DNA of 64,000 nucleotides from an uncultured Clostridia bacterium. GTDB lineage: Bacteria > Bacillota > Clostridia > UMGS1883. Below are positions 4,899 through 48,734 of the stretch, in pieces. The notes beneath the pieces were generated by a model. It did not search any database. It was given only the letters and a program-made list of their open reading frames with translations, and was not told where the DNA came from. The position numbers were made by a program, and so were the translations under genes. The stretch is from positions 23,673 to 87,672 of the forward strand of contig CAKSNY010000001.1 of NCBI GenBank assembly GCA_934476455.1. The letters are read 5' to 3'. Within the stretch, counting starts at the first letter, position 1. The number at the start of each line of letters is the position of its first letter.

Positions 4899-5050
4899 TT
4901 TAATTCTCCTTATTTTAAAATTGGTCTTTTTTGCAAGACGGCAATCTAAACCATATATAATGTAGCACAAACAATGCTTAAAAATAAAGGGACACTTTCT
5001 TGCTAAAAGGTAATTTGCAAAACAAAAAGGCAAAAAATAAAAAAATGGTG

Positions 5051-9265: not shown

Positions 9266-9329
9266 CGCTTTACTATACAGCACAGTTAGCTTATATACAG
9301 CTTGTACGCATCACGGGAGGGATTTTGTA

Positions 9330-11672: not shown

Positions 11673-11677
11673 TTGTG

Positions 11678-14824: not shown

Positions 14825-14843
14825 ATGGATGTGGGGTAGTAAT

Positions 14844-15791: not shown

Positions 15792-15819
15792 ACAGAATTA
15801 AAATATAGGAGGCAATTAT

Positions 15820-16701
15820 ATGCAAAAAAATAAAGAGCTATCAAGCAAGATATTTGATGCTTTTAACATTATAGGTATGTGTGTCATCATATTTATAACG
15901 CTGTACCCGATTATATATGAGCTTGCGATTTCCATGAGTTCGTCTAAGTATGTTCAGGCGAATATGGTTACGTTTCTTCCGAAGGGCATAAATATGGGGG
16001 CGTACAAAAAGGTATTTGCGGACAGAGGCTTTTGGATATCTTATAAAAATACCATTTTTTACACTGTATTCGGAACATTTATAAACATTTTTTTTACCTG
16101 TACATTGGCATTTTGCCTGTCAAGAAAAGAGCTTATAGGCAGAAAGCCCATAACGTTTCTTGTAATGATGACGATGTTTTTTAGCGGCGGTATTATACCG
16201 AATTTCCTTGTGGTAAAGTGGCTTGGGTTATATAACACCATTTGGGCAGTGGTGCTGCCGTATGCAATAAATACATACAATATGGTTATTGTCCGAACTT
16301 TTATGGTTTCAATACCGGAATCGCTTGTAGAAGCTGTAAGAATTGACGGAGGAAATGACTGGAATTTGTACAGCAGGGTAATACTGCCGTTATCAAAACC
16401 CGTTATTGCAACCGTAGGTTTGTTTTATGCCGTAAATCACTGGAACAGCTACTTCACACCTATGCTTTACTTAAACGAAAAATCGCTTCAGCCGCTTCAG
16501 GTAATATTAAAGGAAATGGTCGTAGACCAAAACCTGCAAAGCGTTGCGGCGGATTTGGCTGATATGGAACAATCCACACCAAACAGCGATATGCTTATAG
16601 CGGCTTCAATAATAATTTCACTGCTGCCGATTATATCGGTTTACCCGTTCCTTCAAAAATACTTTGTTAAGGGAATGATGATAGGTTCTGTTAAAGGATA
16701 A
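15820..16701 (+). CDS. Carbohydrate ABC transporter permease (LplC/YesQ-like)
   Basis: Multi-TM protein with the EAA motif EAVRIDGGNDWNLYSRVILPLSKP. Confidence 0.85.
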   Translation: MQKNKELSSKIFDAFNIIGMCVIIFITLYPIIYELAISMSSSKYVQANMVTFLPKGINMGAYKKVFADRGFWISYKNTIFYTVFGTFINIFFTCTLAFCLSRKELIGRKPITFLVMMTMFFSGGIIPNFLVVKWLGLYNTIWAVVLPYAINTYNMVIVRTFMVSIPESLVEAVRIDGGNDWNLYSRVILPLSKPVIATVGLFYAVNHWNSYFTPMLYLNEKSLQPLQVILKEMVVDQNLQSVAADLADMEQSTPNSDMLIAASIIISLLPIISVYPFLQKYFVKGMMIGSVKG

Positions 16702-16730
16702 AAATAAATAAAAGAAAGGAAGAATAATTT

Positions 16731-24868: not shown

Positions 24869-26068
24869 ATGTCAACAGCAAAAAAATTACTTGAAGAGGG
24901 CGGCGGTATATACCGCCTTGCACCCACATGGGTGCCGAGGGCGTTTTGCCGCCCGGCAAAAAGAATAAAACTGCATCCCGACGACTATTACGTTTTGGGA
25001 CAGCAAAGAGGAGGAATCGATGAAAGATGGTTTTCATCAACAACACACGCAGATAACGGACCGCAAACGCCTGAGGACGAGGGTCTTAGCTACATAGTGT
25101 CAAAGGACGGCAGCGAAAAGGTTTTGCTGCGTGATGCGGTTAAGGAGCTTGGCGCAGAGGTCGTAGGTGAAAGCATATGGAACAAATATCATAAATGGCC
25201 TATGTTTTCAAAATTCTTTGATAACCTCGGACCGCTTCCGCATCATATACATCACCGCGAGCAGCACGCAAGGCGTGTGGGCGAGGCAGGAAAGCCCGAG
25301 ATGTATTTTTTTCCGTCACAGGTAAATAACTATGAGGGTGAATTCGGATATACGTTTTTCGGATTGAAGCCCGAAACCACAAAGGAACAGGTTAAAAAAT
25401 GCCTTGAGAACTTTACCAAGGGCGACAACCACCTTCTTGACCTGTCGCAGGCGTATAAAATAACGCTTGATACAGGCTGGGACGTTCCTCCGGGGGTGCT
25501 GCACGCTCCGGCAAGCCTCTGCACCTATGAGCCGCAGTTTGCAAGCGACGTATACGCTATGTATCAATCGGTTTTATACGGCGGACACTGTGTTTCGGAG
25601 GATTTGCTGTGGAAAAACTGCCCCGAGGAGGAAATAGGCAATTTCGACTATCTTGTAGAGGTAATAGACTGGGATAAGAACGTAGACCCGAAATTCAGCG
25701 AAAACAGGTTTATGGCGCCAAAGGTAACAGCACAAAACGATGACTACACAGAGGAATGGATTTGCTATAGGTGCGAAACCGTTTGCGCGAAAAGGCTTAC
25801 GGTAAACCCGGGAAAGACTGCCGTTATAAAGGATAAAGCCGCATACGGAATGATTCTTTTACAGGGTAAAGGAAAAATGGGTGCCTGGGATATAGAAACA
25901 CCTACGCTTATACGCTACGGCGAGCTTACAAATGACGAGTTTTTTGTTACTGAAAAAGCTGCAAACGGCGGGGTTAAGATTATAAACACGTCAAAAACGG
26001 AGCCCATTGTAATGCTTAAGCATTTTGCGGAAAACCCCGAGCTTTCCGAGGTGCTGTGCAATGAATAA
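24869..26068 (+). CDS. Cupin-fold sugar isomerase, phosphomannose-isomerase type I-like
   Basis: KRIKLHPDDYYV matches the conserved IKVHPDD motif of type I PMI (such as B. subtilis ManA). His/Glu-rich metal-binding candidates (HHIHHREQH) are present. The architecture is atypical because the motif sits close to the N-terminus. Confidence 0.45.
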   Translation: MSTAKKLLEEGGGIYRLAPTWVPRAFCRPAKRIKLHPDDYYVLGQQRGGIDERWFSSTTHADNGPQTPEDEGLSYIVSKDGSEKVLLRDAVKELGAEVVGESIWNKYHKWPMFSKFFDNLGPLPHHIHHREQHARRVGEAGKPEMYFFPSQVNNYEGEFGYTFFGLKPETTKEQVKKCLENFTKGDNHLLDLSQAYKITLDTGWDVPPGVLHAPASLCTYEPQFASDVYAMYQSVLYGGHCVSEDLLWKNCPEEEIGNFDYLVEVIDWDKNVDPKFSENRFMAPKVTAQNDDYTEEWICYRCETVCAKRLTVNPGKTAVIKDKAAYGMILLQGKGKMGAWDIETPTLIRYGELTNDEFFVTEKAANGGVKIINTSKTEPIVMLKHFAENPELSEVLCNE

Positions 26069-27201: not shown

Positions 27202-27230
27202 TTGAAATATTGTAATTATGGGATTAAAAT
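27202..27230 (+). promoter_or_regulatory. Candidate sigma-A promoter (TTGAAA - 17 bp - TAAAAT) upstream of locus 2
   Basis: Hexamers with a 17-bp spacing ~60 bp upstream of the 27293 start codon. Confidence 0.3.
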
Positions 27231-27292
27231 TATTTTGTAAGTGCCATATAGATGCGGCACTGAAAAGAAAGCAATTATTGAGGAGGATTATT

Positions 27293-28768
27293 ATGTTAAA
27301 TGGAAAGAAAACAGGTATGCTGCTGTGTATCGTAACCATTCTTTGCATATGCTTGCAAATGGTTGTTTCAGCTGCGTCGGATGCTGTCAGTGAGAGTTTA
27401 ACACTTACCGAAACGACAGTCGGATACAGTTTGGAAGGAACGGTATCATCCGATGAGGTAGGTTCCGTGCAGCTTGTAGCAGCGGTATATGACGGGACAA
27501 CAAATGCACTGCGCACAGTAAAGCCGATAGAGGCAAGCTTTACCAACAACAGCGCGAAAATTTCTGCATCAATTACATGTACCCCAGAGGCAAATGATAA
27601 AATAAAGCTGTTTATTTTAGACACTTTTAAAAATTTAAAACCTCTTGCACAGGTATCGGAAAAAAAGATTCAGACAGAGAACGAGGTTAAGACTGTATGT
27701 AAGGCGAACGGTGTCGTTCTTTCATGGGATAAGATAGACGGTGTACAAAGCTACGAAATTTACAGAGATAATGTAAAAATTGCAACCGTAGAAGATACTA
27801 CATATAACGATATTTATTTCGAAACAATTGAACAGATGCTTGGAGAGACTTTGGGTATGGCAGACGGAATTACAACGGAGAACATTTCCGAAAGCCACAG
27901 CTATTATGTTGTTGCGGGAAAGTATAAGAGTAAGAGTGCAGAAGCTAAAGCAAGCACAGAAAAAATTCGCTATTTCTCTCTCAGCGGTGTGACAGATGCA
28001 ATGACCAAGGCAGTTGAGGATATAACCAAAAATGCAAAGGCAAATAGGATTACGATTGAAGCTCAAAATTATAAGAATACAAGCGGAAGCTGGGTTATGG
28101 ACGGTAGATTAAAAGCGGTTGAAAAATACAGCGCGCTTACAGAGTTAACAACGGATACAAAAGACAGTGCTAACGAAATTAAAACGCAATATGGAATAAC
28201 GAGCAATGCAGGTTGGGATAACGCTACACCTCTTGCACCGGTTATAGAAGAGTATAAAGGCAAACAAGCATTTCGTCTTGTTACACTTAAGAATTATATG
28301 GATAAGACATCAAGTGATAGCTACAATCCGGGTTATGCGGCTGTAGGATTTAAGGTGGATTTGTTTGAAGGCGAGACAGAGAGCGAAACAAGATATACCT
28401 GCCTTGTCAACGCTGATTTGAAGCCGTTGACGACCAGCTATAAGATTACAACGGTATTTCCCGTAGGAACTGTGGTAAATGGGAGTTTTGGAAATCTAAA
28501 AGTTGTTACGGATAATGCCGCAAGCACAGTTAAAACCCAAACAGAGACAGTAGGATTCCATGTAAAAGAGAATGACACCAGAGATTATGCGACCTATATT
28601 TATGATATTACCACAAAACTGGGTGCGAACAGTAAATTTAATGTAAATGCGTATTCGCCCAAAAAAGCTAACTACACATATTTAAAAGACCAGACAAATA
28701 TAACGGGTGATAATGGTTCCGTTCACAGTATCGCGTTAGTTCCGGCAGAGGACTTTTTAAGAAGATAA
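27293..28768 (+). CDS. Secreted hypothetical protein with fibronectin type III-like domain
   Basis: Start moved to the ATG after GAGGAGG, giving a signal peptide (MLLCIVTILCICLQMVVSAAS). The FN3-like segment is GVVLSWDKIDGVQSYEIYRDNVKIATVEDTTYND. No catalytic motifs were recognised. Confidence 0.5.
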   Translation: MLNGKKTGMLLCIVTILCICLQMVVSAASDAVSESLTLTETTVGYSLEGTVSSDEVGSVQLVAAVYDGTTNALRTVKPIEASFTNNSAKISASITCTPEANDKIKLFILDTFKNLKPLAQVSEKKIQTENEVKTVCKANGVVLSWDKIDGVQSYEIYRDNVKIATVEDTTYNDIYFETIEQMLGETLGMADGITTENISESHSYYVVAGKYKSKSAEAKASTEKIRYFSLSGVTDAMTKAVEDITKNAKANRITIEAQNYKNTSGSWVMDGRLKAVEKYSALTELTTDTKDSANEIKTQYGITSNAGWDNATPLAPVIEEYKGKQAFRLVTLKNYMDKTSSDSYNPGYAAVGFKVDLFEGETESETRYTCLVNADLKPLTTSYKITTVFPVGTVVNGSFGNLKVVTDNAASTVKTQTETVGFHVKENDTRDYATYIYDITTKLGANSKFNVNAYSPKKANYTYLKDQTNITGDNGSVHSIALVPAEDFLRR

Positions 28769-28804: not shown

Positions 28805-31450
28805 ATGAATGTGAAAAAAGGAAAAAAAATAATGATTATGTTATTGTCGGTTGTATTGTTTGTGAACTTTTCGGGTGTGCAGCTGTATGCCGATGCTGCA
28901 TATCCCGAAAAGTACGCATATTTGTTAAACAGCGCACCCGACAGCGCATATGCAATTATAGGTAAAAAAACCGATCAGCATTATTGCAAATTTATTGACG
29001 GTCGGGAAAGTGGAATAACAGACAGCAATAATATACTTTATTCCGCCGATACTGAGATTGACGGAATCGATGCAAGGTATTTTAATGTAAACAATTATTT
29101 GTGCATAGCTTATGATAGCGGTTTCTACGGCAAGGATGACCACAGTTTTCTGTTTTCGGTTGTTTATTATGATTACGGACCGGGACAGGGAAAATTTTAT
29201 CTTGACTATTACAGTACAAACGGAAGCATAAATCGTGTAACAATGATAAAGCCGGGAAAGGTTCAGGGATGGTTTGCAAACACCGTTTGCGTCGATGATA
29301 TAGATATGACAAAAACCTTTGCCGAGGGCGGAAATATAAGAATAATTACAAGTGGAAAAAATGCATTCAAAAAGGTGGAAACAGCAAATCTCTCACGCCT
29401 GCGGTTAAACAAGCAAAGCGCGCAGCTAAGCTGTCTCGGGTCAACAAGGGTAGATGTAATGCAGCAGCTGGGCTTTTTACAAAACTTTGAAAAGTCAAAT
29501 ATGGGCAAAGACTGCACTAAACGGGAAGCATGGATAATGCTTTCAAAAATATGCGGTGAAGATTATAAAAGTATTCCGGATAAATATGATGATTCTGCCA
29601 TAACTCAGGGCGAGCTTTTAAAGTTATATATGGACAAGCTGGGGATGTATTTCTCAACGGACGCTATCAGTGCTGCTGAAACCGTGCAGCTTATTTCGTT
29701 ATCTGAACTTTTTTTGTCTGAAAACAGCCCCGCGAGTGAATATAATCTTATAAATCTTACATATAGGGCGCTTTTCTTTAAATCCGAGGGGAAAAAATCG
29801 CTTGCGGCTGTGCTTATTGAAAGAGACTTTTTCCCGAGCAGTGTTATAAAAGAAGTGTCGGATCAGCTGTTTGTTTCGGAATATTACAGCGTCCCGCGAA
29901 AATGCCGGTCCGAAAAAATAGAAGATCAAGAGACAGGGCGAACATATTATTATATGAATATGTTCGGGGAACCGGCATTGCGGCCGTATCTTACCCTTCA
30001 ATCGTGGATGGAAGATGGAACAGGTTTTTTGGTAGGTACAAAAACAAACGGTATTTACAATTTGTTTTTGTACAATATAGAGAACGAAACAGTTACATTC
30101 ATAGATACTGATTTGGAAACCTACGGTAATGACCACATAGACGCATGCGTTGGGACAGATAATAAAATTTACTATGTAAAGCGTACAAACGGACACAACA
30201 GCATATGGTGTGCCGAAACAGAAAAATACACAAAAACATTGCTTATAGATATTCCGGATATGGTTAAGGTAGGCGGTATATCTCTTACAAACGACTGTAA
30301 TTATATTGGTTTTGATTATTCCGAACCATACACACCCGACAAACCGTATCCCGAAAATTCAAAGCTTGGCGCACGTCTGAACATACGTACGGGTGAATGG
30401 AAAATATTTGCACACAAATGGAGTTTTTCAAACATTCTAAACCATACGCAAATAAACCCAAAATATCCGAATCTGCTGTTCTTTTGTCATGAGATTGCAG
30501 GCTCAACGGGATATCAGGGAATCCTGGATGACAGACTGTGGACTGTGGATCTGGATAGCGGAAAACAGCAATGCGTATTTATACAAGGGCAGGATTGCGG
30601 GGAAACAATAATTCAGCCAACACATGAAACGTGGTCAAATGACGGTGAAAAGCTGTATTTTGTTTACTGTTCTGGTCTGGGGAACGGGTTGTATGCGCTC
30701 GACAAGGACGGTCGTCATAGGCAATTTTATTTAAATCCATACGGTTATTCATATTCGCACTGCTTTGGAAGCGGGGATAATAAGTATCTTGTTGCAGACG
30801 GACGGTTTATAACCGTTGTAAATACACAGACACATCAGGCATACAAAATTGCACGTTGGTTTAAAAATGCTTTTAATGATCATCCGTACCATCCGCACCC
30901 TCATGTTGCACGTAATTTTTACAAAACCAATTGGGGGGCTGTTCACAATGATGTTTTGGGTGTAATGTGGTATGATTTTTCGGAGATAGATGAAAATGAG
31001 ACGGCTGTAGGCGGATTTAAACGTCTTAATGATACTGCAAGATATGTAAGCTACAGTGATTTGGATTGTAAAGTAGAAGCTGTGAAAAAGGATGGAATTG
31101 ACTGCATCAAAGTCTCAGGCGGAAATTCTCTTTATATTGATGTCGATGAAAATATAGTTGACGCAGTCGACGCTTCGGCGGAAATAGAGTTTGAATATTA
31201 TGATTACGGATATTCGCCCGTAATTCTTACCTACACGCGTGGTTTTAAAAGCAATGAAGATTATTGGAAGACCGGTAACGGTCAGCTTGTTGTTGAAAGA
31301 AACAACACAAAAAAATGGGAAAAAGCGAAGCTGTATATTGACAGCGGAAATTTTGAGAACATAGGAAAGTATTCGACGGATTTTAAAATCGGCGGATTAA
31401 ATTCAGAGGTATATATAAAAGATGTTAAAGTTAGAAGGAGTGTAAAGTGA
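28805..31450 (+). CDS. Secreted multidomain protein: terminal 'YYDYG' beta-sandwich-like modules flanking a central beta-propeller resembling oligogalacturonate lyase (PL22)
   Basis: A signal peptide is present. The central region (LFFCHEIAGSTGYQGILDDRLWTVDLDSGKQ ... WSNDGEKLYFV) resembles the Ogl/PL22 propeller, including its LLFCHEG-type motif. The modules near both the N-terminus (FSVVYYDYGPGQGKF) and the C-terminus (IEFEYYDYGYSPVILTY) are similar to each other. Confidence 0.5.
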   Translation: MNVKKGKKIMIMLLSVVLFVNFSGVQLYADAAYPEKYAYLLNSAPDSAYAIIGKKTDQHYCKFIDGRESGITDSNNILYSADTEIDGIDARYFNVNNYLCIAYDSGFYGKDDHSFLFSVVYYDYGPGQGKFYLDYYSTNGSINRVTMIKPGKVQGWFANTVCVDDIDMTKTFAEGGNIRIITSGKNAFKKVETANLSRLRLNKQSAQLSCLGSTRVDVMQQLGFLQNFEKSNMGKDCTKREAWIMLSKICGEDYKSIPDKYDDSAITQGELLKLYMDKLGMYFSTDAISAAETVQLISLSELFLSENSPASEYNLINLTYRALFFKSEGKKSLAAVLIERDFFPSSVIKEVSDQLFVSEYYSVPRKCRSEKIEDQETGRTYYYMNMFGEPALRPYLTLQSWMEDGTGFLVGTKTNGIYNLFLYNIENETVTFIDTDLETYGNDHIDACVGTDNKIYYVKRTNGHNSIWCAETEKYTKTLLIDIPDMVKVGGISLTNDCNYIGFDYSEPYTPDKPYPENSKLGARLNIRTGEWKIFAHKWSFSNILNHTQINPKYPNLLFFCHEIAGSTGYQGILDDRLWTVDLDSGKQQCVFIQGQDCGETIIQPTHETWSNDGEKLYFVYCSGLGNGLYALDKDGRHRQFYLNPYGYSYSHCFGSGDNKYLVADGRFITVVNTQTHQAYKIARWFKNAFNDHPYHPHPHVARNFYKTNWGAVHNDVLGVMWYDFSEIDENETAVGGFKRLNDTARYVSYSDLDCKVEAVKKDGIDCIKVSGGNSLYIDVDENIVDAVDASAEIEFEYYDYGYSPVILTYTRGFKSNEDYWKTGNGQLVVERNNTKKWEKAKLYIDSGNFENIGKYSTDFKIGGLNSEVYIKDVKVRRSVK

Positions 31451-33009
31451 TGAAAAGGAAAAGAATATTATGCATATGTCTTGCGTCTTTCATGCTTTTT
31501 GTTTGCGGCTGCAACAAAAAACAGGCAACGCATTCAGTATCAAATTTGAAAAAAGGAGAGATTAGCTATCCGATAGACACCACGGAAAAGCTTACTTATT
31601 GGAGAATTCTCCCTTCAAATATTTCCGCTGATGTTTCAAATTTGGGCGAAACGGAATTTGCAAAAAACCTTAAAGAGGCTACAGGAATTGAGGTAGAATA
31701 CATACATCCCGCACAAGGGCAGGAAAACGCAATAAATTTGCTTTTGGCATCCGATGATTTGCCTGATATCATACAAACAGATTGGATAATGCAGTCGCCG
31801 ACAAGCTGTATTGAGCAGCAGCTTATATTAAAGCTTAACGACTATGTAAAAGATTATGCGCCGAACTTTGCAAATTTCCTTAAAGAAAATCAAGACCTTG
31901 CAAAGCAGGTTGTTGATGATGAGGGGAATTACTACTCGTTTCCGTTTATAAGAAATGACAAAACGCTCTACTCAAGCAGGGGAATTATAGTGCGCAGTGA
32001 TTTGTTTGATGAACTTGGACTGCAAATTCCGGAAACGATAGAGGAATGGGACAGAGCATTAGAAGCTGTAAAGAAAAAGTGCAAGACGCCCTTCGCAACG
32101 AATACGGCAGGTTTTATCGCTTTTATGGGTGGATTTGACGCTTTTAACAGTTTGTATTTAAAAGACAATAAAGTGCATTTCGGAGCTATAGAAGAAAATT
32201 ATAAAAAATATATAGCAAAACTTCACGAATGGTATGAAAAGGGATACATTGATAAAAACTACGCAATTGCAGATCAAAAGATGATGGATTCGGCTATGCT
32301 TAATGGCGAATCCGCAATAACTGTAGGGTCGGGCGGTTCTACAATGGGTTCATACCTTTCTGCAAAGCCTAATGATAAATACAGTCTCAGTGCTGCAAAA
32401 TTTCCGTCCGTTAAAAAGGGCGTAAATTCGAAATTCAGTGTAAGCTCTACGAGATATTCAAATACCGGAGCGGCTGTTTCAACAAACTGTAAACACCCGG
32501 AGCTTGCGGTGCGTTTTCTTGATTTTGGTTACAGCGAAAAAGGTGCACTTTTCTATAATTTTGGGAAAGAAGGCGAAAGCTATAATATGATAAACGATTA
32601 CCCTACGTATAAGCCCGAGCTTCTTTCACCGAAAAACGGCAAGTCTGCCGCACAAATGCTTACGCTTAATTGCTTGGGTCCGGTTGACGGTCCGTTTTTA
32701 CAGGATAAGAGATATTTAGAGCAGTACTATACAAATGATAGCCAAAAGAAAGCGGTTGAAAGGTGGGCTGAAACAGATTGGCAGGATTATCGATTGCCCG
32801 CGCTTACATTGACGGCAGAGGAAACAGAAGAATACAACTCGATTATGAGTGAAATAAACATTTATCTGGATGAAATGCTGAACAATATGATTATAGGAAA
32901 GGTTTCCGTAGATAAATTTAATGACTATGTCAAGACTGCGAAGACAATGGGTATTGAAAGAGCAATAAAAATACAACAGGATGCGTATGACAGGTATCTT
33001 AAGAGATAA
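31447..33009 (+). CDS. Extracellular solute-binding lipoprotein (family 1, LplA-like)
   Basis: Signal peptide with lipobox (FMLFVCGCNKK). At 520 aa it is a paralog of the 16731..18308 binding protein and sits adjacent to two permeases. Confidence 0.8.
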   Translation: MMKRKRILCICLASFMLFVCGCNKKQATHSVSNLKKGEISYPIDTTEKLTYWRILPSNISADVSNLGETEFAKNLKEATGIEVEYIHPAQGQENAINLLLASDDLPDIIQTDWIMQSPTSCIEQQLILKLNDYVKDYAPNFANFLKENQDLAKQVVDDEGNYYSFPFIRNDKTLYSSRGIIVRSDLFDELGLQIPETIEEWDRALEAVKKKCKTPFATNTAGFIAFMGGFDAFNSLYLKDNKVHFGAIEENYKKYIAKLHEWYEKGYIDKNYAIADQKMMDSAMLNGESAITVGSGGSTMGSYLSAKPNDKYSLSAAKFPSVKKGVNSKFSVSSTRYSNTGAAVSTNCKHPELAVRFLDFGYSEKGALFYNFGKEGESYNMINDYPTYKPELLSPKNGKSAAQMLTLNCLGPVDGPFLQDKRYLEQYYTNDSQKKAVERWAETDWQDYRLPALTLTAEETEEYNSIMSEINIYLDEMLNNMIIGKVSVDKFNDYVKTAKTMGIERAIKIQQDAYDRYLKR

Positions 33010-33074: not shown

Positions 33075-34016
33075 ATGTCATCAATGCAAAAGAAATTATA
33101 CAAAGAATCATTTTGGGAGAGAGCGAAAAAGGATATAAAAAAGAACAAGGTTTTGTATTTGCTTGTATTATTACCGCTTGCATATTATATAGTATTTCAA
33201 TATGTGCCGATGTATGGGATAGTTATAGCATTTAAGCGATATATTCCTGCTCTTGGCATAAATGACAGTCCGTGGGTAGGATTCAGTCACTTCAAAAAGT
33301 TCTTTGAAAGCGTATATTTTTGGCGAATTTTGAAAAATACTTTCCGAATAAGCTTTTTCAGTATTATGTTCGGATTTCCCGCACCGATACTGCTTGCATT
33401 GCTTATAAACGAATTGTCGAATAAGTATTTTGTAAAAAGCGTGCAAACCATAACATACCTTCCGCATTTTGTTTCTATGGTTGTTATATGCGGCATAATA
33501 AAAAGCTTTACCGGAACAAACGGAATAATAACAAACATATTATCGTATTTTACGCATGATACTACTTCTGTGCTCATGCACCCGGAATATTTTACGGCGG
33601 TATATGTGTTATCAAATATATGGCAAGGGATAGGCTGGGGCTCAATAATCTATTTTGCCGCGCTGACAAATATCAATTCGGAATTGTATGAAGCGTGCGA
33701 AATAGACGGCGGCGGCAGACTACGCCAGGCAATCCATGTAACCATCCCGGGAATTTTGCCGACAATCATAATAATGCTTATTATGCGTGTGGGCAGTATA
33801 CTTAATGTAGGCTATGAGAAAATAATTTTGCTTTACAATCCGCTTACATATAAAACGGCGGATGTTATATCAACGTATGTTTACAGAAAAGGTCTTTTGG
33901 AAAACAACTACAGTTACGCAACGGCGGTAGGATTGTTTAATTCTGTTGTAAACGTTATCTTTTTGTGCCTTTGCAATAGGTTTTGCAGAAAGGTTTCAGA
34001 TACAAGCTTATGGTGA
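33075..34016 (+). CDS. Carbohydrate ABC transporter permease (LplB-like)
   Basis: Paralog of the 14844..15791 permease (LLVLLPLAYYIVFQYVPMYGIVIAFKRY, plus an EAA-loop region ACEIDGGGRLRQ). Confidence 0.85.
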   Translation: MSSMQKKLYKESFWERAKKDIKKNKVLYLLVLLPLAYYIVFQYVPMYGIVIAFKRYIPALGINDSPWVGFSHFKKFFESVYFWRILKNTFRISFFSIMFGFPAPILLALLINELSNKYFVKSVQTITYLPHFVSMVVICGIIKSFTGTNGIITNILSYFTHDTTSVLMHPEYFTAVYVLSNIWQGIGWGSIIYFAALTNINSELYEACEIDGGGRLRQAIHVTIPGILPTIIIMLIMRVGSILNVGYEKIILLYNPLTYKTADVISTYVYRKGLLENNYSYATAVGLFNSVVNVIFLCLCNRFCRKVSDTSLW

Positions 34017-34045
34017 CCTACCGATGCTCAGAGGAGAGAGAATAT

Positions 34046-34924
34046 ATGAAAAAATTAACTTTATCGCGCAAGGCGTTCCTTGTTTTTGATGTGACACTGC
34101 TGGCGCTTTTGATTGCAGTGTGCGCATATCCTCTTATCTATGTGCTGTTTGCTTCATTCAGCGACTCGAATTTACTTATCAAGCACAGCGGATTTTTGTT
34201 AAAACCGCTTGGGTTTAACATTATGTCATACAAGGCAGTGTTCAGCAACCCGATGATAGGAAAGGGATATTTAAACACCCTGTTTATACTGGTGGTAGGT
34301 GTAGCTATAAATATTATGATGACATCACTGGCAGCATATTTCCTTTCAAGGAGAAATGTTATGTTTAAAGCTCCCATTATGGCAATAATGCTTTTTACAA
34401 TGTATTTTTCCGGCGGTATTATTCCCAGCTATATTACAATTAAAAATTTGGGCTTGTACGATTCGCTATGGTCGCTTATTCTTCCCGTTTCAATCAGTAC
34501 ATATAACCTTATAATTATGCGTACATCTTTCCAGGGGATACCTGCAAGCCTTGAGGAAGCGGCATATCTTGACGGTGCAGGTCATTTAACAATAATACGT
34601 TATGTTATTTTGCCGCTTTCAAAGGCGATAATTGCCGTAATGGTATTATATTACGGTGTGGAATATTGGAACTCGTGGTTTAACGCAAGTATATATCTAA
34701 ACGACAGAAGCAAATATCCTTTGCAGCTTGTGTTAAGAGAAATATTACTGCAAAATGATATTTCAAATATGGCGGGCGGAGCTGAGGCAGGCGATGTGTA
34801 CAGTGTTGCCGAAAGTATTAAATATGCAGTAATCGTTGTTGCAACCTTTCCTATTTTATGTTTATATCCGTATTTGCAAAAATACTTTGTAAAGGGTGTA
34901 ATGATAGGCTCTTTGAAAGGATGA
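34046..34924 (+). CDS. Carbohydrate ABC transporter permease (LplC-like)
   Basis: Start trimmed to the ATG after GAGGAGAG. EAA motif EAAYLDGAGHLTIIRYVILPLSKA. Paralog of the 15820..16701 permease. Confidence 0.85.
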   Translation: MKKLTLSRKAFLVFDVTLLALLIAVCAYPLIYVLFASFSDSNLLIKHSGFLLKPLGFNIMSYKAVFSNPMIGKGYLNTLFILVVGVAINIMMTSLAAYFLSRRNVMFKAPIMAIMLFTMYFSGGIIPSYITIKNLGLYDSLWSLILPVSISTYNLIIMRTSFQGIPASLEEAAYLDGAGHLTIIRYVILPLSKAIIAVMVLYYGVEYWNSWFNASIYLNDRSKYPLQLVLREILLQNDISNMAGGAEAGDVYSVAESIKYAVIVVATFPILCLYPYLQKYFVKGVMIGSLKG

Positions 34925-34929
34925 TTTAT

Positions 34930-36675
34930 ATGTTGGCAAGTTGCTATTGCACTATAAGGAAATACATTCTGAAGAAAACGATATGCGGTGCGGTTGCTTT
35001 GCTTTTAGGAATTGCTTCCGTTATATCAAATGAAATTACCGCTGCAGCAGCGGTTTTGGATGCAGAATGGTCTGCTGATTATACTGATATGAAGCTGATA
35101 ATAAATGTGAATACATCCGCTCCATACATACAACAGATAACTGCAGTAATGTATCCTGCCGATATTACGGTGCCGACGTTTAATGACTATTCACGTGTCT
35201 GTGAAATTACGACAAATAAAAGCGGTAACAAAATAATTTTCGGAATTTATGACGACTTAAACGCTCCTGACGGGAAATACAAAATTGAACTGCGCGGGAA
35301 CGGATATATGGCAGAGCAATGTAAAAAAGACCTTGAGGTATATGTAATCTGTCCAAACAGAATAAAAGGTGCGGGAGGTCTTTTGGAAAGAGCAAATACG
35401 GAAAATTCATCGAACGGAATAAACGCGCTTATCGGAGAATTAAAAGATGGCCTTTTATTAACCGAGGAATCGGATAATGAAAGAAAAGAAATACGGGCAC
35501 AGGTGTTTGTCAATATCAGAAGCGACGACTTTAACGGCGCGTTTAAAAACCTCGATAATGTTAGGGAAGCCTGGCTCATTTCGGATATTTTGACGCATTT
35601 TAATGAAAGCTCGGCTTCAAAAGATTCTATAAAAGCAAAGATTGAACAGAATGCAGCCTTGCTGGATACAGATATTAACGACGCAGAGTACGATAAGTAT
35701 TCTGATGCGGTTTATTCAAGTATTTATACATTCAGAAATAATTATTGCAATAAAGGCATAAGATCATACACATTGTTAAAAAAATCTATAAAAGAGTTTT
35801 TGGCTCTTGCAATAATAAATGATTCCGATTTAGAGAACGGAAATTTAAAAAGCAACATAGAAACCTATTATAAAGACTTAGGCATACCCGAAGAATTATA
35901 TGCGCGTTATTCAAAGCTTGACAAATCAAACAAAGAGCTTGTTTTAAAACAGCTTTATCATAAAGACTTTGCAGATGGTACGGTTTTGCAAAAAGTATTC
36001 GGTGATGCAGTGGAGTATGTAGAAAAACAAGGTAATAAAAGTGATAATTCGGATAGCGGAAAATCATGGTCAGGCGGCGGTGGCGGTAGCTACAGCATTG
36101 CTTCGCCGAAGAATAACGAAATAAACACTGATGAATTTAGGTTTAATGATTGTCCTGAAACGCATTGGGCGTACAGTTATATAAAAAAACTGTGTAATAA
36201 AAATATTTTGTCGGGCTATGGGGACGGCAGCTTTTTACCGGAAAAAAATGTGAGTCGGGAAGAATTTGTGAAAATGATTATTTCCGCTGTCGGATTGTAC
36301 GACAAAGGTGCGGAATGTGAGTTTGCGGATGTTTCGAAAAGCAGCTGGAGCTACAGATATATTGCTTCTGCGCGTAATGCAGAGATCATTAACGGAATGA
36401 ATGATAATATATTCGGGGCGCAAAGCTTTGTAACACGTGAGGATGCCGCCGTTATCGCAAGTAGAGTTTTGAAAAGATTCGGTATAGATGCAGACGGTAT
36501 CGGAATTGTGTTTTCAGACGAAAATCTGATAAAGGATTACGCAAAGGAATGTGTTAATTCTCTCTCTGCGATGGGAATAATAACCGGTTATGAAGACGGA
36601 GGCTTTTATCCTCAGGGGAATCTTACCCGTGCACAGGCAGCAAAGATAATTTGTGAGATATGCCGCTATGTATAA
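34930..36675 (+). CDS. Cell-surface protein with N-terminal uncharacterised domain, helical region, Gly-rich linker and 3x C-terminal SLH domains
   Basis: Signal/TM segment ICGAVALLLGIASVI. WSGGGGGSYS linker. The SLH motifs are WAYSYIKKLCNKNILSGYGDGSF, WSYRYIASARNAEIINGM and YAKECVNSLSAMGIITGYEDGGF. The C-terminal half has the same architecture as the 9330..11672 protein. Confidence 0.7.
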   Translation: MLASCYCTIRKYILKKTICGAVALLLGIASVISNEITAAAAVLDAEWSADYTDMKLIINVNTSAPYIQQITAVMYPADITVPTFNDYSRVCEITTNKSGNKIIFGIYDDLNAPDGKYKIELRGNGYMAEQCKKDLEVYVICPNRIKGAGGLLERANTENSSNGINALIGELKDGLLLTEESDNERKEIRAQVFVNIRSDDFNGAFKNLDNVREAWLISDILTHFNESSASKDSIKAKIEQNAALLDTDINDAEYDKYSDAVYSSIYTFRNNYCNKGIRSYTLLKKSIKEFLALAIINDSDLENGNLKSNIETYYKDLGIPEELYARYSKLDKSNKELVLKQLYHKDFADGTVLQKVFGDAVEYVEKQGNKSDNSDSGKSWSGGGGGSYSIASPKNNEINTDEFRFNDCPETHWAYSYIKKLCNKNILSGYGDGSFLPEKNVSREEFVKMIISAVGLYDKGAECEFADVSKSSWSYRYIASARNAEIINGMNDNIFGAQSFVTREDAAVIASRVLKRFGIDADGIGIVFSDENLIKDYAKECVNSLSAMGIITGYEDGGFYPQGNLTRAQAAKIICEICRYV

Positions 36676-36696: not shown

Positions 36697-39366
36697 TTGA
36701 GAAAGATATATATTTGTTTTGCCGTAGTGGCGGTGTCGGTTTTACTGACGCTTTGCAATATTACGGGATATGCAAGCAGCACCGATACAACATATGACGA
36801 AAGCCTTTCTGCGCTTAACGCCATGGGGGTTTTAAACCTTCCGGATTCGGAAGGGGATAATCAAAATATTACACGTGCACAGTTTGCCGCAAATATTTTT
36901 AACATTGCGGGATATGAAAAGGTAAATCATCCGGCGGCGGATATACCGTTTTCGGATGTAAGTGTCGATTATGTGTATAAAGACGAGATATGCACACTTT
37001 ATGATTTGAAAATTATAAACGGTACGGAAAACGGATTCTTTTCACCCGAAGAACCTATAACATATGTACAGGCAGTTAAGCTTGCGGCAGACATACTTGG
37101 GTACAGAGAATATGTAAGCGTAAAATACGGAAAGTATCCAAACGGGTATATATCAGCCGCCTATGATTTAAAGCTGACAGACGGGATAAAATCTCCTGTA
37201 ACAGATATACCGTTAAACTTAAAGGATGCAGTTCGTTTTTTGTATAATACCGCGTGTTCTTTCGTTTCGGAGGGAGAGGAATATAAAACGAACGGAGGTA
37301 TAACATACGCAAAAGACAACAGAATGCTCATAACAAAGGGACATAATATTTATTACGGTGAAGGAGTTTTAAAAAGTAACGGGGTATGTGCGCTTACCGG
37401 TGTGACGCTGAAAAAGGGTCATACAGAAATAAACAATGAGGAATATATGATAGGAAAATGTGACGTTTTAAGCCTTCTCGGAAGCAAGGTAAAATATTTT
37501 TACAGAGAGGAAAAAGGCGGAAACGTTCTTTTGTGGGCGTCGGAGCATAAAAGCAACAAAACGCTGACAATAAACAGCCGTGACCTTATAACAGACGATA
37601 CCGATTACAGCGCGGAAAAAATAATATATTATGACAAAAACAAAAGAACAGCTGCCGAAATATCCCCGTTTGCAAGCATTGTTTATAACAATAAGCTGAG
37701 AAATATCACATGTGTTATAAAACCCGTTTCGGGTACTGTGAAACTTACGGATTCTGATGGGGACGGAAGATGGGAGACTGTGACCGTAAACGAATTTAAA
37801 AATATTTTTATTACAGGGATTTTGCCGAATGAAAAGGTAATTGCAGATAAATTCGGAAATACGGTTTGCCTTAATGATTATAAGAACGTAACGATAGTTA
37901 AAGAAGGCAGAAAGATAAACATAGAGGAAGTTCCGACGCGGGTTATTGCGTCATACACAGAGGATGAAGAAAAAGAAAGCATATATGTATATATATGCGA
38001 TGAAGGGGAGCTTGGCACTCTTGAAGCTGTAGGTGAGGAAAACGGAAAAAATATATACACATTCTCCGGAAAAGAAAAGAGAATTTCATACAGTTATTCG
38101 AAGATTATATCTGATGGAATTTATCCTGCGTGTGAACTGAAAATAGGGGAAAATTATAAATATTATACGGATATTTCGGGCGATATTGCCGAACTTGAAA
38201 ATCGCAACGACGGGAAAATCAGATACGCATATCTGATTGACGCGGCAAAAGATAATAAGGCAACGGCAAAAAGCTATGCTGCACTTGTAAAGCTTTTGCT
38301 TGACAATGGAGATATAATTATTGCAAAGGCAGAAAAAAACATAAAGATAAACAATGTTTCCGGTTTTACGGGTGAAGATCTACTGAATTGCCCATTTATT
38401 TCGGAAGGCGGGAAAATAAAACAGCAGGTTGTAAAAATTGCGTTTGGGCACGATGATAAGGTACTGGAGATACAGTTTGCGGAAGACAATACAAATTCTG
38501 AATATGGGTATAATTCAAATGTTTTTTCACTTGATTTCAGCTGTAATCAGATAGGTGAGCCAAGTTATTATTACGGTTCGAAGATCGACGCTTTTGCCGT
38601 TGACGGAAATGCAAAATATTTTGTTGCCGATGGCACAATCTGTTTTGTAAAATATTCTGATTCTCTGCAAGATGAGCCATATGCCGTAACAAGTGCATTA
38701 AATTTCGCGGACAAGGGTAGATATAATGTTGAGCTGTATGATTGCAACGAAAAAATGGAAATAGCTGCAATGAGTACGGTCAGAACACTTGGCGGCGTTG
38801 AAAACGCAATATTTGTTGTAGACAACGTGCGTTATGTTTTGGGTGAAAACGGAGAGAATTTAAAACAAGTAAGCGGCTACAAAAATGGAAATTATTTAAC
38901 GTATACAGAACTTTACGAAGATATAATTCCCGATGGACTGCAACGCGGAGATGCAATTAAGATAGGGATGTACAACGGAAAAATAAGCAGCTTTAAACAG
39001 ATTTGCAGCCTGAGACAGTATCCGGAAGCCTTTATAGAAGCGGACTCTGTCAGAGAGGATGGATTGCTTTTCGGACAATTATACTCTGTGGGAATTAACA
39101 ATATTGTTACCGTAGTTCCTGATTCCGAAAAGGCGGTATACGGAAAACTTGTATCGTCATCATTGGCTGAAATATGGGCAAATCCGGTGTATATTACGAT
39201 ATATAATTGTGCGGACGACACAATTTCAAAGGGAGAACTGAGAGATATTTTGCCCGCCGGCGGACCTGATAATAACGGCGATTTGCCCGCAGACGGCAGA
39301 AAAATAATGGCATTGCTTAATAAAACAAAAGGTTATGCGCGTGATATAGTTGTAGTGTATTATTAA
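36697..39366 (+). CDS. Large secreted SLH-domain protein (N-terminal SLH-like repeats + ~700-aa uncharacterised region); paralog of 44450..47077 and 11678..14824
   Basis: TTG start after GGGGGAGGG. A signal peptide is present. The N-terminal SLH-like repeats are LSALNAMGVLNLPDSEG and YKDEICTLYDLKIINGTENGFF. The conserved C-terminus ends RDIVVVYY. Confidence 0.6.
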   Translation: MRKIYICFAVVAVSVLLTLCNITGYASSTDTTYDESLSALNAMGVLNLPDSEGDNQNITRAQFAANIFNIAGYEKVNHPAADIPFSDVSVDYVYKDEICTLYDLKIINGTENGFFSPEEPITYVQAVKLAADILGYREYVSVKYGKYPNGYISAAYDLKLTDGIKSPVTDIPLNLKDAVRFLYNTACSFVSEGEEYKTNGGITYAKDNRMLITKGHNIYYGEGVLKSNGVCALTGVTLKKGHTEINNEEYMIGKCDVLSLLGSKVKYFYREEKGGNVLLWASEHKSNKTLTINSRDLITDDTDYSAEKIIYYDKNKRTAAEISPFASIVYNNKLRNITCVIKPVSGTVKLTDSDGDGRWETVTVNEFKNIFITGILPNEKVIADKFGNTVCLNDYKNVTIVKEGRKINIEEVPTRVIASYTEDEEKESIYVYICDEGELGTLEAVGEENGKNIYTFSGKEKRISYSYSKIISDGIYPACELKIGENYKYYTDISGDIAELENRNDGKIRYAYLIDAAKDNKATAKSYAALVKLLLDNGDIIIAKAEKNIKINNVSGFTGEDLLNCPFISEGGKIKQQVVKIAFGHDDKVLEIQFAEDNTNSEYGYNSNVFSLDFSCNQIGEPSYYYGSKIDAFAVDGNAKYFVADGTICFVKYSDSLQDEPYAVTSALNFADKGRYNVELYDCNEKMEIAAMSTVRTLGGVENAIFVVDNVRYVLGENGENLKQVSGYKNGNYLTYTELYEDIIPDGLQRGDAIKIGMYNGKISSFKQICSLRQYPEAFIEADSVREDGLLFGQLYSVGINNIVTVVPDSEKAVYGKLVSSSLAEIWANPVYITIYNCADDTISKGELRDILPAGGPDNNGDLPADGRKIMALLNKTKGYARDIVVVYY
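36742..37703 (+). repeat. Copy A of a ~962-bp near-identical direct repeat (copy B at 44507..45468)
   Basis: Nucleotide comparison gives a constant offset of 7765 bp across the repeat, with only two substitutions seen on spot checks. It encodes the identical N-terminal ~320 aa of the paralogs, and the six-frame track shows identical antisense ORFs at 37076..37312 and 44841..45077. Confidence 0.85.
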
Positions 39367-48656: not shown

Positions 48657-48734
48657 TATGAAATACCACGGTGAAAATATAAGGCAGAAAATAAAAAAAG
48701 ATATTTTAATATGCAGACAGAAAGGCTGAAAATA

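Follow-up and report, generated by a model that had tools for sequence, protein, structure and literature searches.

To our knowledge, PL22 is known solely as a family of small cytoplasmic enzymes that finish off oligogalacturonides, and all of its characterised members prefer short oligomers to polymers. The oligomer preference of a Klebsiella OGL has been described (PMC13314786). The two solved PL22 oligogalacturonate lyases (Ogl), YeOGL (3pe7) and VPA0088 (3c5m), fall under PF14583, and Ogl are single-domain cytoplasmic proteins of ~390 aa that belong to a kdg-type regulon. PL11, PL24, PL25, and PL42 also use a propeller scaffold for beta-elimination on uronate-containing glycans. In the rhamnogalacturonan-I (RG-I) system of B. 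subtilis, secreted lyases are combined with ABC import of unsaturated GalA-Rha(-Gal) and a cytosolic GH105 (PMC7596534). This yes/yte system comprises PL11 YesW/YesX, YesOPQ, GH105 YesR/YteR, and YesS; YteR is an unsaturated rhamnogalacturonyl hydrolase (PMC4528949), and YesS is an AraC-family activator of 761 aa (PMC2788870).

Here, a PL22-like protein was analysed together with its surroundings in a stretch of 64,000 nucleotides from an uncultured Clostridia bacterium (hereafter, the window). Unlike Ogl, the protein has 881 aa, a predicted signal peptide, two terminal 'YYDYG' modules, and a helical region, and its gene lies in a cassette of SLH surface proteins (Table 1). A Shine-Dalgarno-like GAGAGGGG stands immediately 5' of the ORF, and the stop codon shares bases with the start of the next gene, which encodes the solute-binding protein (SBP) of an ABC importer. 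The N-terminal sequence, MNVKKGKKIMIMLLSVVLFVNFSGVQLYADA, looks like a Sec signal peptide when read by eye. In the AF2 model of the whole protein (pLDDT 83.7, pTM 0.74), residues 1-32 had a pLDDT <50, and a crude pattern detected signal-like N-termini in 103 of 125 relatives. Because of this signal-peptide-like N-terminus and the neighbouring SLH proteins, the PL22-like protein is probably secreted and extracellular. The ORF is present, and the motifs LLFFCHEIAGSTGYQG (residues 557-572), FSVVYYDYGPGQGKF (117-131), and IEFEYYDYGYSPVILTY (794-810) were all found where the first-pass annotation had placed them. The view taken there, that Ogl are normally intracellular enzymes of ~390 aa, holds for the characterised Ogl but not for the present branch, in which secreted multi-domain forms dominate in metagenomes.

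Table 1. Positions in the window of the PL22-like protein, its parts and aligned residues, and its neighbours.
Feature	Position	Strand	Basis
ORF of the PL22-like protein, 881 aa	28805..31450	+	ATG start
Signal-peptide-like N-terminus, residues 1-30 (basic n-region, hydrophobic core, YADA/A)	28805..28894	+	read by eye
N-terminal copy of the 'YYDYG' beta-sandwich module, residues ~41-200	28925..29404	+	all-beta in AF2 model
Helical region, residues 201-364	29405..29896	+	helices in AF2 model
Seven-bladed beta-propeller, predicted divergent PL22 superfamily catalytic domain, residues 365-734	29897..31006	+	profile and Foldseek
C-terminal module copy, jelly-roll abutting the propeller directly, residues 735-881	31007..31447	+	AF2 and Foldseek
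R577, aligned with Ogl R217, DRxW motif	30533..30535	+	R in 122/126 relatives
H607, aligned with Ogl H242, THExW motif	30623..30625	+	H in 126/126
H652, aligned with Ogl metal ligand H287	30758..30760	+	H in 126/126
HPYHPHP motif, H693/H696/H698 aligned with Ogl Q350/H353/H355	30881..30901	+	profile alignment
516-aa secreted protein, conserved upstream neighbour	27218..28768	+	BLASTP
ABC importer lipoprotein SBP	31447..33009	+	Pfam SBP_bac_1
ABC importer, two permeases	33075..34016, 33983..34924	+	50-60% tblastn identity to BPD_transp_1 genes of related loci
605-aa protein, three C-terminal SLH repeats	34858..36675	+	Pfam SLH 1.1e-34
889-aa protein, N-terminal SLH repeat	36697..39366	+	Pfam SLH 1.5e-8
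897-aa protein, module at both ends	39384..42077
N-terminal module copy of the 897-aa protein, residues 86-269	39639..40190	+	hhalign
C-terminal module copy of the 897-aa protein, residues 740-895	41601..42068	+	hhalign
AraC-family regulator, 777 aa, HTH_18 / GGDEF_2-like	42120..44453	+	Pfam
YteR-like GH105, predicted unsaturated rhamnogalacturonyl hydrolase	48711..49829	+	Pfam PF07470 4.6e-91

The relation to PL22 became visible at the level of the family. The protein had no Pfam match, PF14583 included, even at E<=10, whether searched whole or as three sub-fragments; the NCBIfam scan gave no match, and phmmer found nothing among the PDB sequences. A profile of 19 close homologues, however, matched both solved Ogl, 3pe7 and 3c5m (E 4.9e-10 and 9.4e-10), and when bridging sequences were added, 3pe7 was matched over residues 8-368 with an E value of 1.7e-36. 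Several of the bridging relatives themselves score above the gathering threshold of PF14583 (P0074, 49.0 bits; P0164, 48.1; P0069, 46.2; P0152, 39.2; and likewise P0102), and P0164 carries the NCBI name 'oligogalacturonate lyase family protein'. The central region, which the first-pass annotation had called Ogl-like, thus scores against Ogl as a family profile but not as a single sequence.

The AF2 model of the central region showed a seven-bladed beta-propeller with ~27 strands across residues 370-724. The best Foldseek matches of the model were 3c5m and 3pe7 (E ~7e-19, TM 0.75 when normalised to the query), and the next-best fold followed at E 5e-11, ~8 orders of magnitude worse. Among the best 50 PDB fold matches listed, PL22 stood alone on top and none of PL11, PL24, PL25, or PL42 appeared. 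Together, the profile and the predicted structure support the central region as a homologue of PL22 oligogalacturonate lyase, although the identity to Ogl in the Foldseek alignment is just 18-19% and the protein escapes Pfam detection. A literature search returned nothing relevant on PL22 in Monoglobus or on any PL22 clade described as secreted or multi-modular; the clade comprises several hundred sequences that current annotation models overlook.

The propeller was then compared with the active site of Ogl. Abbott et al. are said to have proposed in 2010 that H242 is the catalytic base of Ogl and R217 its catalytic Arg, and the Mn2+ site was reportedly formed by H287, Q350, H353, and H355. 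The numbering is that of YeOGL (3pe7), in whose sequence the numbers land on the right residue types. By alignment, the catalytic His base and Arg of PL22 are present as H607 and R577, and the predicted metal site H652/H693/H696/H698 matches the Mn2+ site of Ogl, with metal-ligating residues at all four positions. Conservation extends to the FCHE, DRxW, and THExW motifs and to the metal motif H...(Q/H)xxHxH, and the same chemistry is predicted, that is, metal-assisted beta-elimination with a His base; the catalytic residues and metal use of PL11, PL24, PL25, and PL42 differ from this His/Arg/His-cluster set. Across the 126 relatives, position 696 is occupied by H in 81 and Q in 40, and position 693 by H in 93, N in 14, D in 7, S in 7, and Q in 3. 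Two departures from Ogl were observed, namely His for Gln350 at the first position of the HPYHPHP motif and an invariant Asn, N551, where Ogl has R196, and because of these the metal and substrate may differ from those of Ogl.

Propellers often serve as non-catalytic scaffolds, and TolB and WD40 propellers were among the further Foldseek matches of the model. Together with the lack of a matching curated model and the identity to Ogl of <20%, this would agree with a propeller that is catalytically dead or a non-lyase, with PL22 ancestry only and a binding or scaffold role. We regard this as highly improbable, since the residues aligned with the base, the Arg, and the metal ligands of Ogl are all retained, and the presence of H607, H652, H698, and D665 in 126 of 126 propellers would be unexpected unless catalysis were under selection. 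Co-occurrence of the gene with GH105 points the same way.

To characterise the terminal modules, they were modelled and aligned across the relatives. The first-pass annotation had put their size at ~85 aa, which is an underestimate; the model and the alignments give ~140-165 aa. When modelled alone, the C-terminal module was an all-beta jelly-roll of ~145 residues (pLDDT 95, pTM 0.89), and the module carries the signature G.eC ... YyD.G ... W.t ... Da.F ... Df.I. The copies at the two ends are homologous, as that annotation had proposed. Family-wide HMMs cross-matched the opposite end at 7.8e-14 (the wide C-type HMM on the N-terminal copy) and 4.6e-20, a test that is partly circular because the HMMs were trained partly on cross-hits. 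The N-terminal copy also aligned with C-type copies along its full length, and both the N-type and the C-type HMMs fell on the same stretches of distant relatives. An earlier hhalign comparison of the two ends with the 19 close homologues alone was weak (36% probability, P 3.8e-4), and the homology became convincing after the module sets had been widened beyond these.

The 897-aa neighbour also carries the module at each end, and here a profile-profile comparison bore out the earlier reading of the sequence. By hhalign, the C-terminal copy was matched with 98.6% probability (E 5.8e-16) and the N-terminal copy, against module profile A3, with 96.8% (E 2.6e-10), whereas three control proteins in the same comparison stayed below 1%. 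In addition, residues 632-896 of this protein matched post-propeller regions of PL22-like relatives in BLASTP. An HMM-versus-sequence search of the other window ORFs gave nothing at E<=1, which for the 897-aa protein was a false negative; the module was not detected in the 516-aa, 605-aa, and 889-aa proteins of the window. The relatives carry two to four modules per protein, with tandem arrays of up to four copies.

The first-pass annotation had been unable to assign the modules to a known CBM, and this stood up in the searches. Neither terminal fragment had a Pfam match at E<=10, no Pfam family recurred among 26 diverse module copies, and the module profile found nothing significant among the PDB sequences. 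Foldseek against the PDB gave weak fold matches (TM 0.38-0.51, E>=3e-4), the best compact ones being CBM16, CBM61, CBM4, and the surface glycan-binding protein SGBP-B; toxin receptor-binding and MAM domains were also among the matches. Judged from the alignments and models, the modules form a family undescribed relative to Pfam and the PDB, with a CBM-like predicted jelly-roll. They resemble beta-sandwich CBMs (CBM16, CBM61, CBM4, and CBM22/35-type) in their ~145-residue jelly-roll and in their placement at enzyme termini and in tandem arrays, but the similarity is one of general fold, and the module has its own signature and no sequence kinship to Pfam families or solved structures.

These comparisons suggest that the modules may bind carbohydrate. 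A somewhat unlikely alternative is that they are structural or protein-protein modules that join the enzyme to the SLH-anchored proteins of the cassette, a role that comes into view because the PL22-like protein has no anchor of its own. It lacks SLH repeats, yet the genes that almost always follow its own encode two SLH proteins and the 897-aa protein, in which the module recurs. Moreover, the C-terminal module starts <=45 residues after the propeller in 95 of 125 relatives, joined without a linker like an integral accessory domain, and its likeness to true CBMs is weak (TM<=0.51), with the toxin and MAM domains among the matches. Tandem arrays and a position at both ends of the 897-aa protein, which has no catalytic domain, are however typical CBM behaviour, and the best compact fold matches are CBMs and a surface glycan-binding protein; similarity to cohesin or dockerin was not seen in the Pfam, PDB-sequence, or fold searches.

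The helical region between the N-terminal module and the propeller had no Pfam or PDB match. Together with the N-terminal module it is present in 58 of 125 relatives, and the two are conserved as a pair in the clade of the PL22-like protein. An SLH-like nature of this region was considered and rejected: the Pfam SLH scan of the protein was empty, an HMM of the region reached only E>=0.047 against the SLH proteins of the window, an internal repeat in the manner of a three-fold SLH array was unconvincing (P = 0.089), and the full-length profile was likewise without a PDB match there.

The gene neighbourhood was examined next. In the 18 related loci of >=14 kb, homologues of the 605-aa SLH protein and of the 889-aa protein were each found in 15, the former downstream of the PL22-like gene and directly next to it in most related loci. 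All five annotated homologous loci contain PF07470, a large GDSL/SGNH esterase, an ABC importer, a ~885-aa protein, and an aBig_2 protein; a ~570-aa SLH protein is present in four of them and an AraC regulator in three, and regulators homologous to the 777-aa AraC protein occur in L001, L028, and L031. Upstream, the 516-aa protein matched the C-terminal extensions of P0057, P0085, P0064, and others (BLASTP, E down to 1e-19). It also matched the L029 GDSL esterase in its C-terminal part and, in L028 and L031, the genes that immediately precede the PL22-like homologue. Its domains are thus fused elsewhere to PL22-like proteins or SGNH esterases, and domain fusions join this type of propeller to domain types of both neighbours. 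The SGNH esterase domain of other loci is absent from the window, where the 516-aa protein represents the non-catalytic C-terminal part.

Compared with B. subtilis yes/yte, the window shows the same chain of steps in a Gram-positive, from a candidate secreted lyase through ABC import to a cytosolic GH105, with an AraC regulator in the size class of YesS and, in related loci, esterases beside the lyase. The GH105, which lies ~17 kb from the PL22-like gene, has no signal peptide at its N-terminus and matches YteR (PDB 1nc5) at E 2.8e-93; its specificity is probably for unsaturated GalA-Rha. The two systems differ in several respects. The lyase candidate is PL22-like and not PL11, and PL11, PL4, and PL26 rhamnogalacturonan lyase domains were not found, nor was any second recognisable lyase, in the window ORFs scanned against Pfam (a set without the permeases and the ORFs at 447-2229 and beyond 57323). 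The SBP is AlgQ-type, the conserved 605-, 889-, and 897-aa surface proteins are without a B. subtilis counterpart, and the window copy lacks an esterase domain.

We consider it fairly probable, from sequence and predicted structure, that the protein is an extracellular, metal-dependent PL22-like uronate lyase with flanking modules that feeds the importer and the GH105, and that its substrate is most likely pectic. The propeller would most likely break the bond at O4 of galacturonate, or of another uronate. In this metal-assisted beta-elimination, the carboxylate would be neutralised by a transition metal bound to H652/H693/H696/H698, and H607, assisted by R577, would remove H5; the new non-reducing end of the product would then be a 4,5-unsaturated uronate. 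The two jelly-roll modules probably keep the enzyme on the polymer or lengthen the binding cleft. The enzyme would work outside the cell, in the company of the co-conserved proteins anchored through SLH repeats and of the 897-aa protein with its modules. The translationally coupled ABC importer would bring the oligosaccharide products of the enzyme into the cytoplasm, where the YteR-like GH105 would shorten them. The substrate is probably a polymer, in contrast to that of Ogl, and possibly something other than oligogalacturonide; RG-I or (acetylated) homogalacturonan would be the most likely. Beyond the homology, fold, and aligned residues, the layout shared with yes/yte and the kinship of the SBP to AlgQ1/2, which bind uronate oligosaccharides, speak for this reading. 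Weighing against it are the lack of a direct match to a curated PL22 model, the low identity to Ogl, the two substitutions, the SGNH esterase domain missing from the window, an SBP unlike YesO, the ~17 kb that separate the gene from the GH105, and the short oligomers used by characterised PL22 enzymes.

The nature of the substrate is where two further readings depart from this one. An active PL22-type lyase could instead act on a non-pectin uronate glycan, for which Rha-GlcA termini of arabinogalactan proteins, microbial exopolysaccharide, alginate, ulvan-like polymers, or host glycosaminoglycans could be candidates; we judge this unlikely. It draws on the SBP, whose closest PDB relatives are AlgQ1/AlgQ2 and the 5gub/5gx8 group (E 1e-30 to 1e-35). 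A YesO-type assignment of the SBP was rejected, YesO being absent from the PDB matches at E<=1e-3. AlgQ1/2 bind alginate oligosaccharides and the 5gub group unsaturated glycosaminoglycan disaccharides, and neither ligand is an RG-I fragment. The N551 and metal-ligand substitutions point the same way, as do the GH2, GH31, GH36, and GHL6 of the window locus and the GH38 of L001, none of which is specifically pectinolytic, and some GH105 act on non-pectic unsaturated uronides (4ce7 was among the PDB matches). Against this, the GH105 of the window is very near YteR, the window also encodes a GH28 bearing SLH repeats, and the large SGNH esterases of all five annotated loci are as in acetylated-pectin systems. 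The hosts, moreover, are Clostridia of the gut and rumen that degrade fibre, a Monoglobus relative among them.

The pectic substrate could also be a short one, if the protein had kept classical Ogl specificity and, relocated to the cell surface, were exo-acting on short (unsaturated) oligogalacturonides to complete the work of other pectinases. The oligomer preference of characterised PL22 enzymes and the conservation of the pocket-forming residues aligned with Ogl are consistent with this, and the extracellular GH28-SLH could provide the oligomers. This reading is nevertheless quite improbable: a set of two to four CBM-like modules in each protein, together with partners that anchor to the surface, is typical of enzymes that act on polymers, no other lyase that could make the GH105 substrate was found in the scanned ORFs of the locus, and extracellular monomer release fits badly with a coupled importer that has an oligosaccharide-type SBP.

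The preferred reading, a lyase acting on a pectic polymer, can be extended to the whole clade. It is possible, though on balance doubtful, that the clade represents a new PL subfamily or family, derived from PL22, extracellular, and endo-acting, that the module is a new CBM family, and that both belong to an undescribed Gram-positive surface apparatus that captures and cleaves glycans and is coupled to an ABC importer. If so, the clade would be specific for RG-I or another acetylated uronate polymer and would replace PL11/PL4 lyases in gut Clostridia, and the apparatus, which would also include the 897-aa protein and, anchored through SLH repeats, the 605- and 889-aa proteins, would be a Firmicutes counterpart of Sus-like systems. 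The PL22 catalytic scaffold appears to have been redeployed in a predicted secreted multi-domain protein of uncultured fibre-degrading Clostridia from the human (Hadza) and ruminant gut. If active on polymer, it would fill the place of the 'missing lyase' in loci that have a GH105 but no recognisable PL, and would add a candidate new CBM family and a conserved Gram-positive gut surface cassette for pectin capture, which would be relevant to dietary-fibre metabolism and enzyme discovery.

The gene for the target, the putatively secreted 881-aa PL22-like protein, was an uninterrupted ORF of 881 codons, with a Shine-Dalgarno-like sequence (GAGAGGGG) upstream of its ATG and a stop codon overlapping the start of the downstream SBP gene. 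Read by eye, the N-terminus of the product has the form of a putative Sec signal peptide. An AlphaFold2 model calculated from the family alignment (pLDDT 83.7, pTM 0.74) resolved a beta-sandwich, a helical region, a propeller of about 27 strands, and a second beta-sandwich. The motifs quoted in the first-pass annotation for the propeller (LLFFCHEIAGSTGYQG), N-module (FSVVYYDYGPGQGKF), and C-module (IEFEYYDYGYSPVILTY) were found at residues 557-572, 117-131, and 794-810, respectively. No relative of the helical region was detectable, and a test for an SLH-like origin of this region gave it no support.

No part of the target was recognised by Pfam or NCBIfam, even at E<=10, and phmmer of the target against PDB sequences gave no match. 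The word-indexed protein search returned 19 homologues of full length (879-913 aa) at 34-51% identity, all without Pfam domains, and one 99% identical copy. When a profile built from these homologues (A1) was compared with solved proteins, the only significant matches were 3pe7 (4.9e-10) and 3c5m (9.4e-10), both PL22 oligogalacturonate lyases (Ogl). With A1, an exhaustive HMMER search recovered 606 proteins at E<=1e-3, of which 147 also reached E<=1e-30; beside these 606, the 19 relatives from the word-indexed search would have given a misleading impression of rarity. Several relatives exceeded the gathering score (30 bits) of the Pfam Ogl model, PF14583, namely the Ogl-sized or shorter proteins P0074 (49.0 bits), P0164 (48.1), P0152 (39.2), and P0102 (34.3) and the 1613-aa multi-module protein P0069 (46.2); P0164 is named "oligogalacturonate lyase family protein" at NCBI. 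A second profile (A2), made from the propeller alone with bridging sequences included, matched 3pe7 across residues 8-368 (E 1.7e-36). In the Foldseek search of the target model against the PDB, 3c5m and 3pe7 ranked on top (E about 7e-19, target-normalised TM 0.75, 18-19% identity), followed by the TolB fold (5e-11). The Ogl-like propeller proposed for the target was thus borne out, and because the profile matches to the Ogl structures are joined by bridging relatives above the gathering score, the homology to PL22 is solid, yet beyond the reach of present curated models.

In work by Abbott, Gilbert and Boraston from 2010, Ogl H242 is reportedly the Brønsted base, assisted by R217, and H287, Q350, H353, and H355 bind Mn2+; these residue numbers match the expected residue types in the 3pe7 sequence, and the PDB title for the Ogl structure reads "in complex with manganese". 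In the A2 alignment, R217 (DARMW) corresponded to R577 (DRLW), H242 (THEFW) to H607 (THETW), H287 to H652, and Q350-V-T-H353-P-H355 to H693-P-Y-H696-P-H698. Among 126 superfamily propellers, H607, H652, H698, and D665 were invariant and R577 was kept in 122; position 696 was H in 81 and Q in 40, and position 693 was H in 93 and otherwise N, D, S, or Q. This conservation pattern argues strongly, at the level of sequence, that a catalytic site for metal-dependent beta-elimination would be retained. PL22 homology together with an intact site is highly probable, and the target is likely to be an active lyase. Two positions differ from Ogl: the target has His in place of Gln350, and Asn551 (Asn in 122/126 relatives; motif H-x-x-x-(R/N)-P) in place of Arg196. 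It is pure speculation that, if Arg196 of Ogl touches a substrate carboxylate, N551 could mean that the adjacent subsite takes a neutral sugar (rhamnose, for example).

The terminal modules had been described as units of ~85 aa; their presence at both ends of the target held, whereas their size had to be revised to about 140-165 aa. With close homologues alone, hhalign of the N-module against the C-module was weak (36% probability, P 3.8e-4). Once the family was widened, HMMs of the N-type and of the C-type landed on the same stretches in many proteins, with up to four tandem copies per protein, and broader module HMMs matched the opposite end of the target at 7.8e-14 and 4.6e-20, values that are partly circular because cross-hits were in the training set. 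The 26 diverse copies gave a coherent alignment with a common signature and shared no recurring Pfam family. By sequence, the module matched no solved structure. A word-indexed search with the module alignment returned no sequence, known family members included, and does not bear on how common the module is. Modelled by itself, the module gave a very confident jelly-roll (pLDDT 95, pTM 0.89), to which the nearest PDB folds were weakly similar (E>=3e-4, TM 0.38-0.51); they comprised CBM16, CBM61, CBM4, a xylanase CBM, SGBP-B, MAM domains, and toxin receptor-binding domains. The fold is CBM-like, given the jelly-roll model and neighbours including CBM16, CBM61, and CBM4, and carbohydrate binding by the modules is somewhat favoured. 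The suggestion that they fall outside known CBM families stood in a comparison confined to Pfam and PDB.

When every window ORF was searched by HMM, the module was seen nowhere but in the target. Profiles of the neighbours were then built from homologues in related loci and compared with the module profile. The 897-aa downstream protein, aBig897, matched over residues 740-895 with 98.6% probability (E 5.8e-16) and over residues 86-269 with 96.8% (E 2.6e-10), confirming that the module recurs at both ends of this neighbour. The SLH605 and SLH889 profiles and the 516-aa protein, the last compared as a lone sequence since no homologues were recovered for a profile, all scored below 1%. By BLASTP, aBig897 residues 632-896 matched the post-propeller regions of PL22-like relatives.

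Architectures were counted in 125 representative proteins, each with a complete propeller. A module followed the propeller within 45 residues in 95, the full N-module/helical/propeller/C-module layout was present in 58, and 17 had three or more modules; just 7 were stand-alone and Ogl-sized. A crude pattern found signal-peptide-like N-termini in 103/125. The window was 100% identical to an uncultured Clostridia MAG from the human gut (Hadza), and every relative came from a gut or rumen MAG, assigned to Oscillospiraceae, Acutalibacteraceae, Ca. Ornithomonoglobus, or unclassified Clostridia. Searches of the accessible literature turned up no account of the clade. Several target paralogues per genome were common; two to four occurred in single genomes (L011/L012, JAFQJD010000006.1; L019/L023, CAZYYT010000007.1; L010/L013/L015, a Ca. 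Ornithomonoglobus MAG), sometimes on one contig, with a separate set of SLH605/SLH889-type genes after each paralogue. This points to multiplication of the cassette within genomes, perhaps for different substrates.

Features of the window in map order, with residue ranges of the target from the AlphaFold2 model
Feature	Window position	Strand	Target residues
892-aa protein	2355..5033	-	
GH28 with SLH repeats		+	
AraC regulator (second set)	7886..9265	+	
Second set	9171..18308		
SLH protein (second set)	9171..11672	+	
1051-aa F5/8-type-C protein (second set)	11669..14824	+	
ABC importer (second set: two permeases, SBP)		+	
GH2		+	
GHL6		+	
399-aa protein	24869..26068	+	
DUF4432 (aldose-epimerase-like)		+	
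516-aa secreted protein	27218..28768	+	
Target	28805..31450	+	
Beta-sandwich			about 45-195
Helices			196-362
Propeller			365-725
Asn551 codon	30455..30457	+	551
Second beta-sandwich			735-878
SBP	31447..33009	+	
Two permeases		+	
SLH605	34858..36675	+	
SLH889	36697..39366	+	
aBig897 (aBig_2)	39384..42077	+	
777-aa AraC regulator		+	
SLH875 (875 aa)	44450..47077	+	
GH31		+	
PF07470		+	
FucI-like		+	
Xylose-isomerase-like		+	
GH36		+	

All large genes surrounding the target lay on the + strand. From 5183 to 63118 this held for nearly all large ORFs, and every 2-kb bin had a positive GC skew, in keeping with a long leading-strand run of co-oriented carbohydrate-utilisation operons. Related loci of at least 14 kb numbered 18; a homologue of SLH605 followed the target in 15 of them, an SLH889-type protein in 15, and a homologue of aBig897 in 10, and ABC permeases and a PF07470 gene each lay within 10 kb in 8/18. 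In each of the five Pfam-annotated loci, PF07470 and a large GDSL/SGNH esterase were accompanied by an SBP with two permeases and by two further proteins, one of about 885 aa and the other an aBig_2 protein (about 900 aa); four of the loci had an SLH protein of about 570 aa, and in three there was an AraC regulator (about 760-770 aa). Domain fusions link these neighbours with the target enzyme: aBig_2 domains lay N-terminal to the propeller in P0033, P0035, P0103, and P0114, and domains of the 516-aa protein recurred as extensions of PL22-like proteins, P0057 and P0085 among them (E down to 1e-19), or of the L029 esterase.

The 516-aa protein was the counterpart of the non-catalytic C-terminal part of the large GDSL/SGNH esterases near target homologues. 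Its esterase domain seems wholly missing, so a deacetylation step may have been lost from this locus or may never have existed in it. SLH875, with one N-terminal SLH repeat, was a paralogue of SLH889; in almost every related locus both matched one shared gene, and neither had a recognisable domain except SLH. The second set was partly paralogous to the target's cassette, and by tblastn its 1051-aa protein matched the same related-locus positions as the SLH889-type gene, which suggests that surface cassettes may have been duplicated and serve different glycans. The 399-aa protein, just upstream of the DUF4432 gene, had no Pfam match and no PDB match at E<=1e-3, and the 892-aa protein had no Pfam match; both are members of the sugar-utilisation region.

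We propose that the secreted PL22-type lyase would cleave a uronate-containing polymer by metal-assisted beta-elimination, targeted to it by the two CBM-like modules and acting beside SLH-anchored partners; the coupled ABC importer would take in unsaturated oligosaccharides, from which a cytosolic GH105 would strip the unsaturated uronate. Among the scanned window ORFs, no further lyase was recognisable besides the target. The PF07470 protein, GH2, GH31, and GH36 all lacked signal peptides, and the PF07470 protein, the GH105 encoded at 48711..49829, was close to YteR (E 2.8e-93), an unsaturated rhamnogalacturonyl hydrolase (PMC4528949). The organisation parallels the yes system of Bacillus subtilis, in which the YesW/X lyases are secreted and cleave Rha-(1,4)-GalA bonds, unsaturated GalA-Rha-Gal enters through YesOPQ, YesR (GH105) is cytosolic, and the 761-aa AraC-type YesS activates the genes (PMC7596534, PMC2788870), except that the window has a PL22-like enzyme where yes has PL11.

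We tentatively assign, at slightly below even chances, a pectic substrate, either RG-I or acetylated homogalacturonan. Pointing that way are the YteR-like GH105, the GH28-SLH protein, the esterases of related loci, and the fact that the hosts degrade fibre. The SBP was a lipoprotein. Among solved proteins it was closest (E 1e-30 to 1e-35) to AlgQ1/AlgQ2, which bind alginate, and to the 5gub/5gx8/5xs8 group, which binds unsaturated glycosaminoglycan disaccharides; it was not YesO-like. This AlgQ1/AlgQ2-related type and the altered active-site residues leave some room for a uronate polymer other than pectin, as a less probable alternative. The catalytic scaffold and chemistry are established ones; no precedent is known for their placement in a secreted multi-domain protein, for the accompanying module family, or for the conserved surface cassette. 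Though no conceptual surprise, the target is worthwhile for CAZyme discovery and gut-fibre biology.
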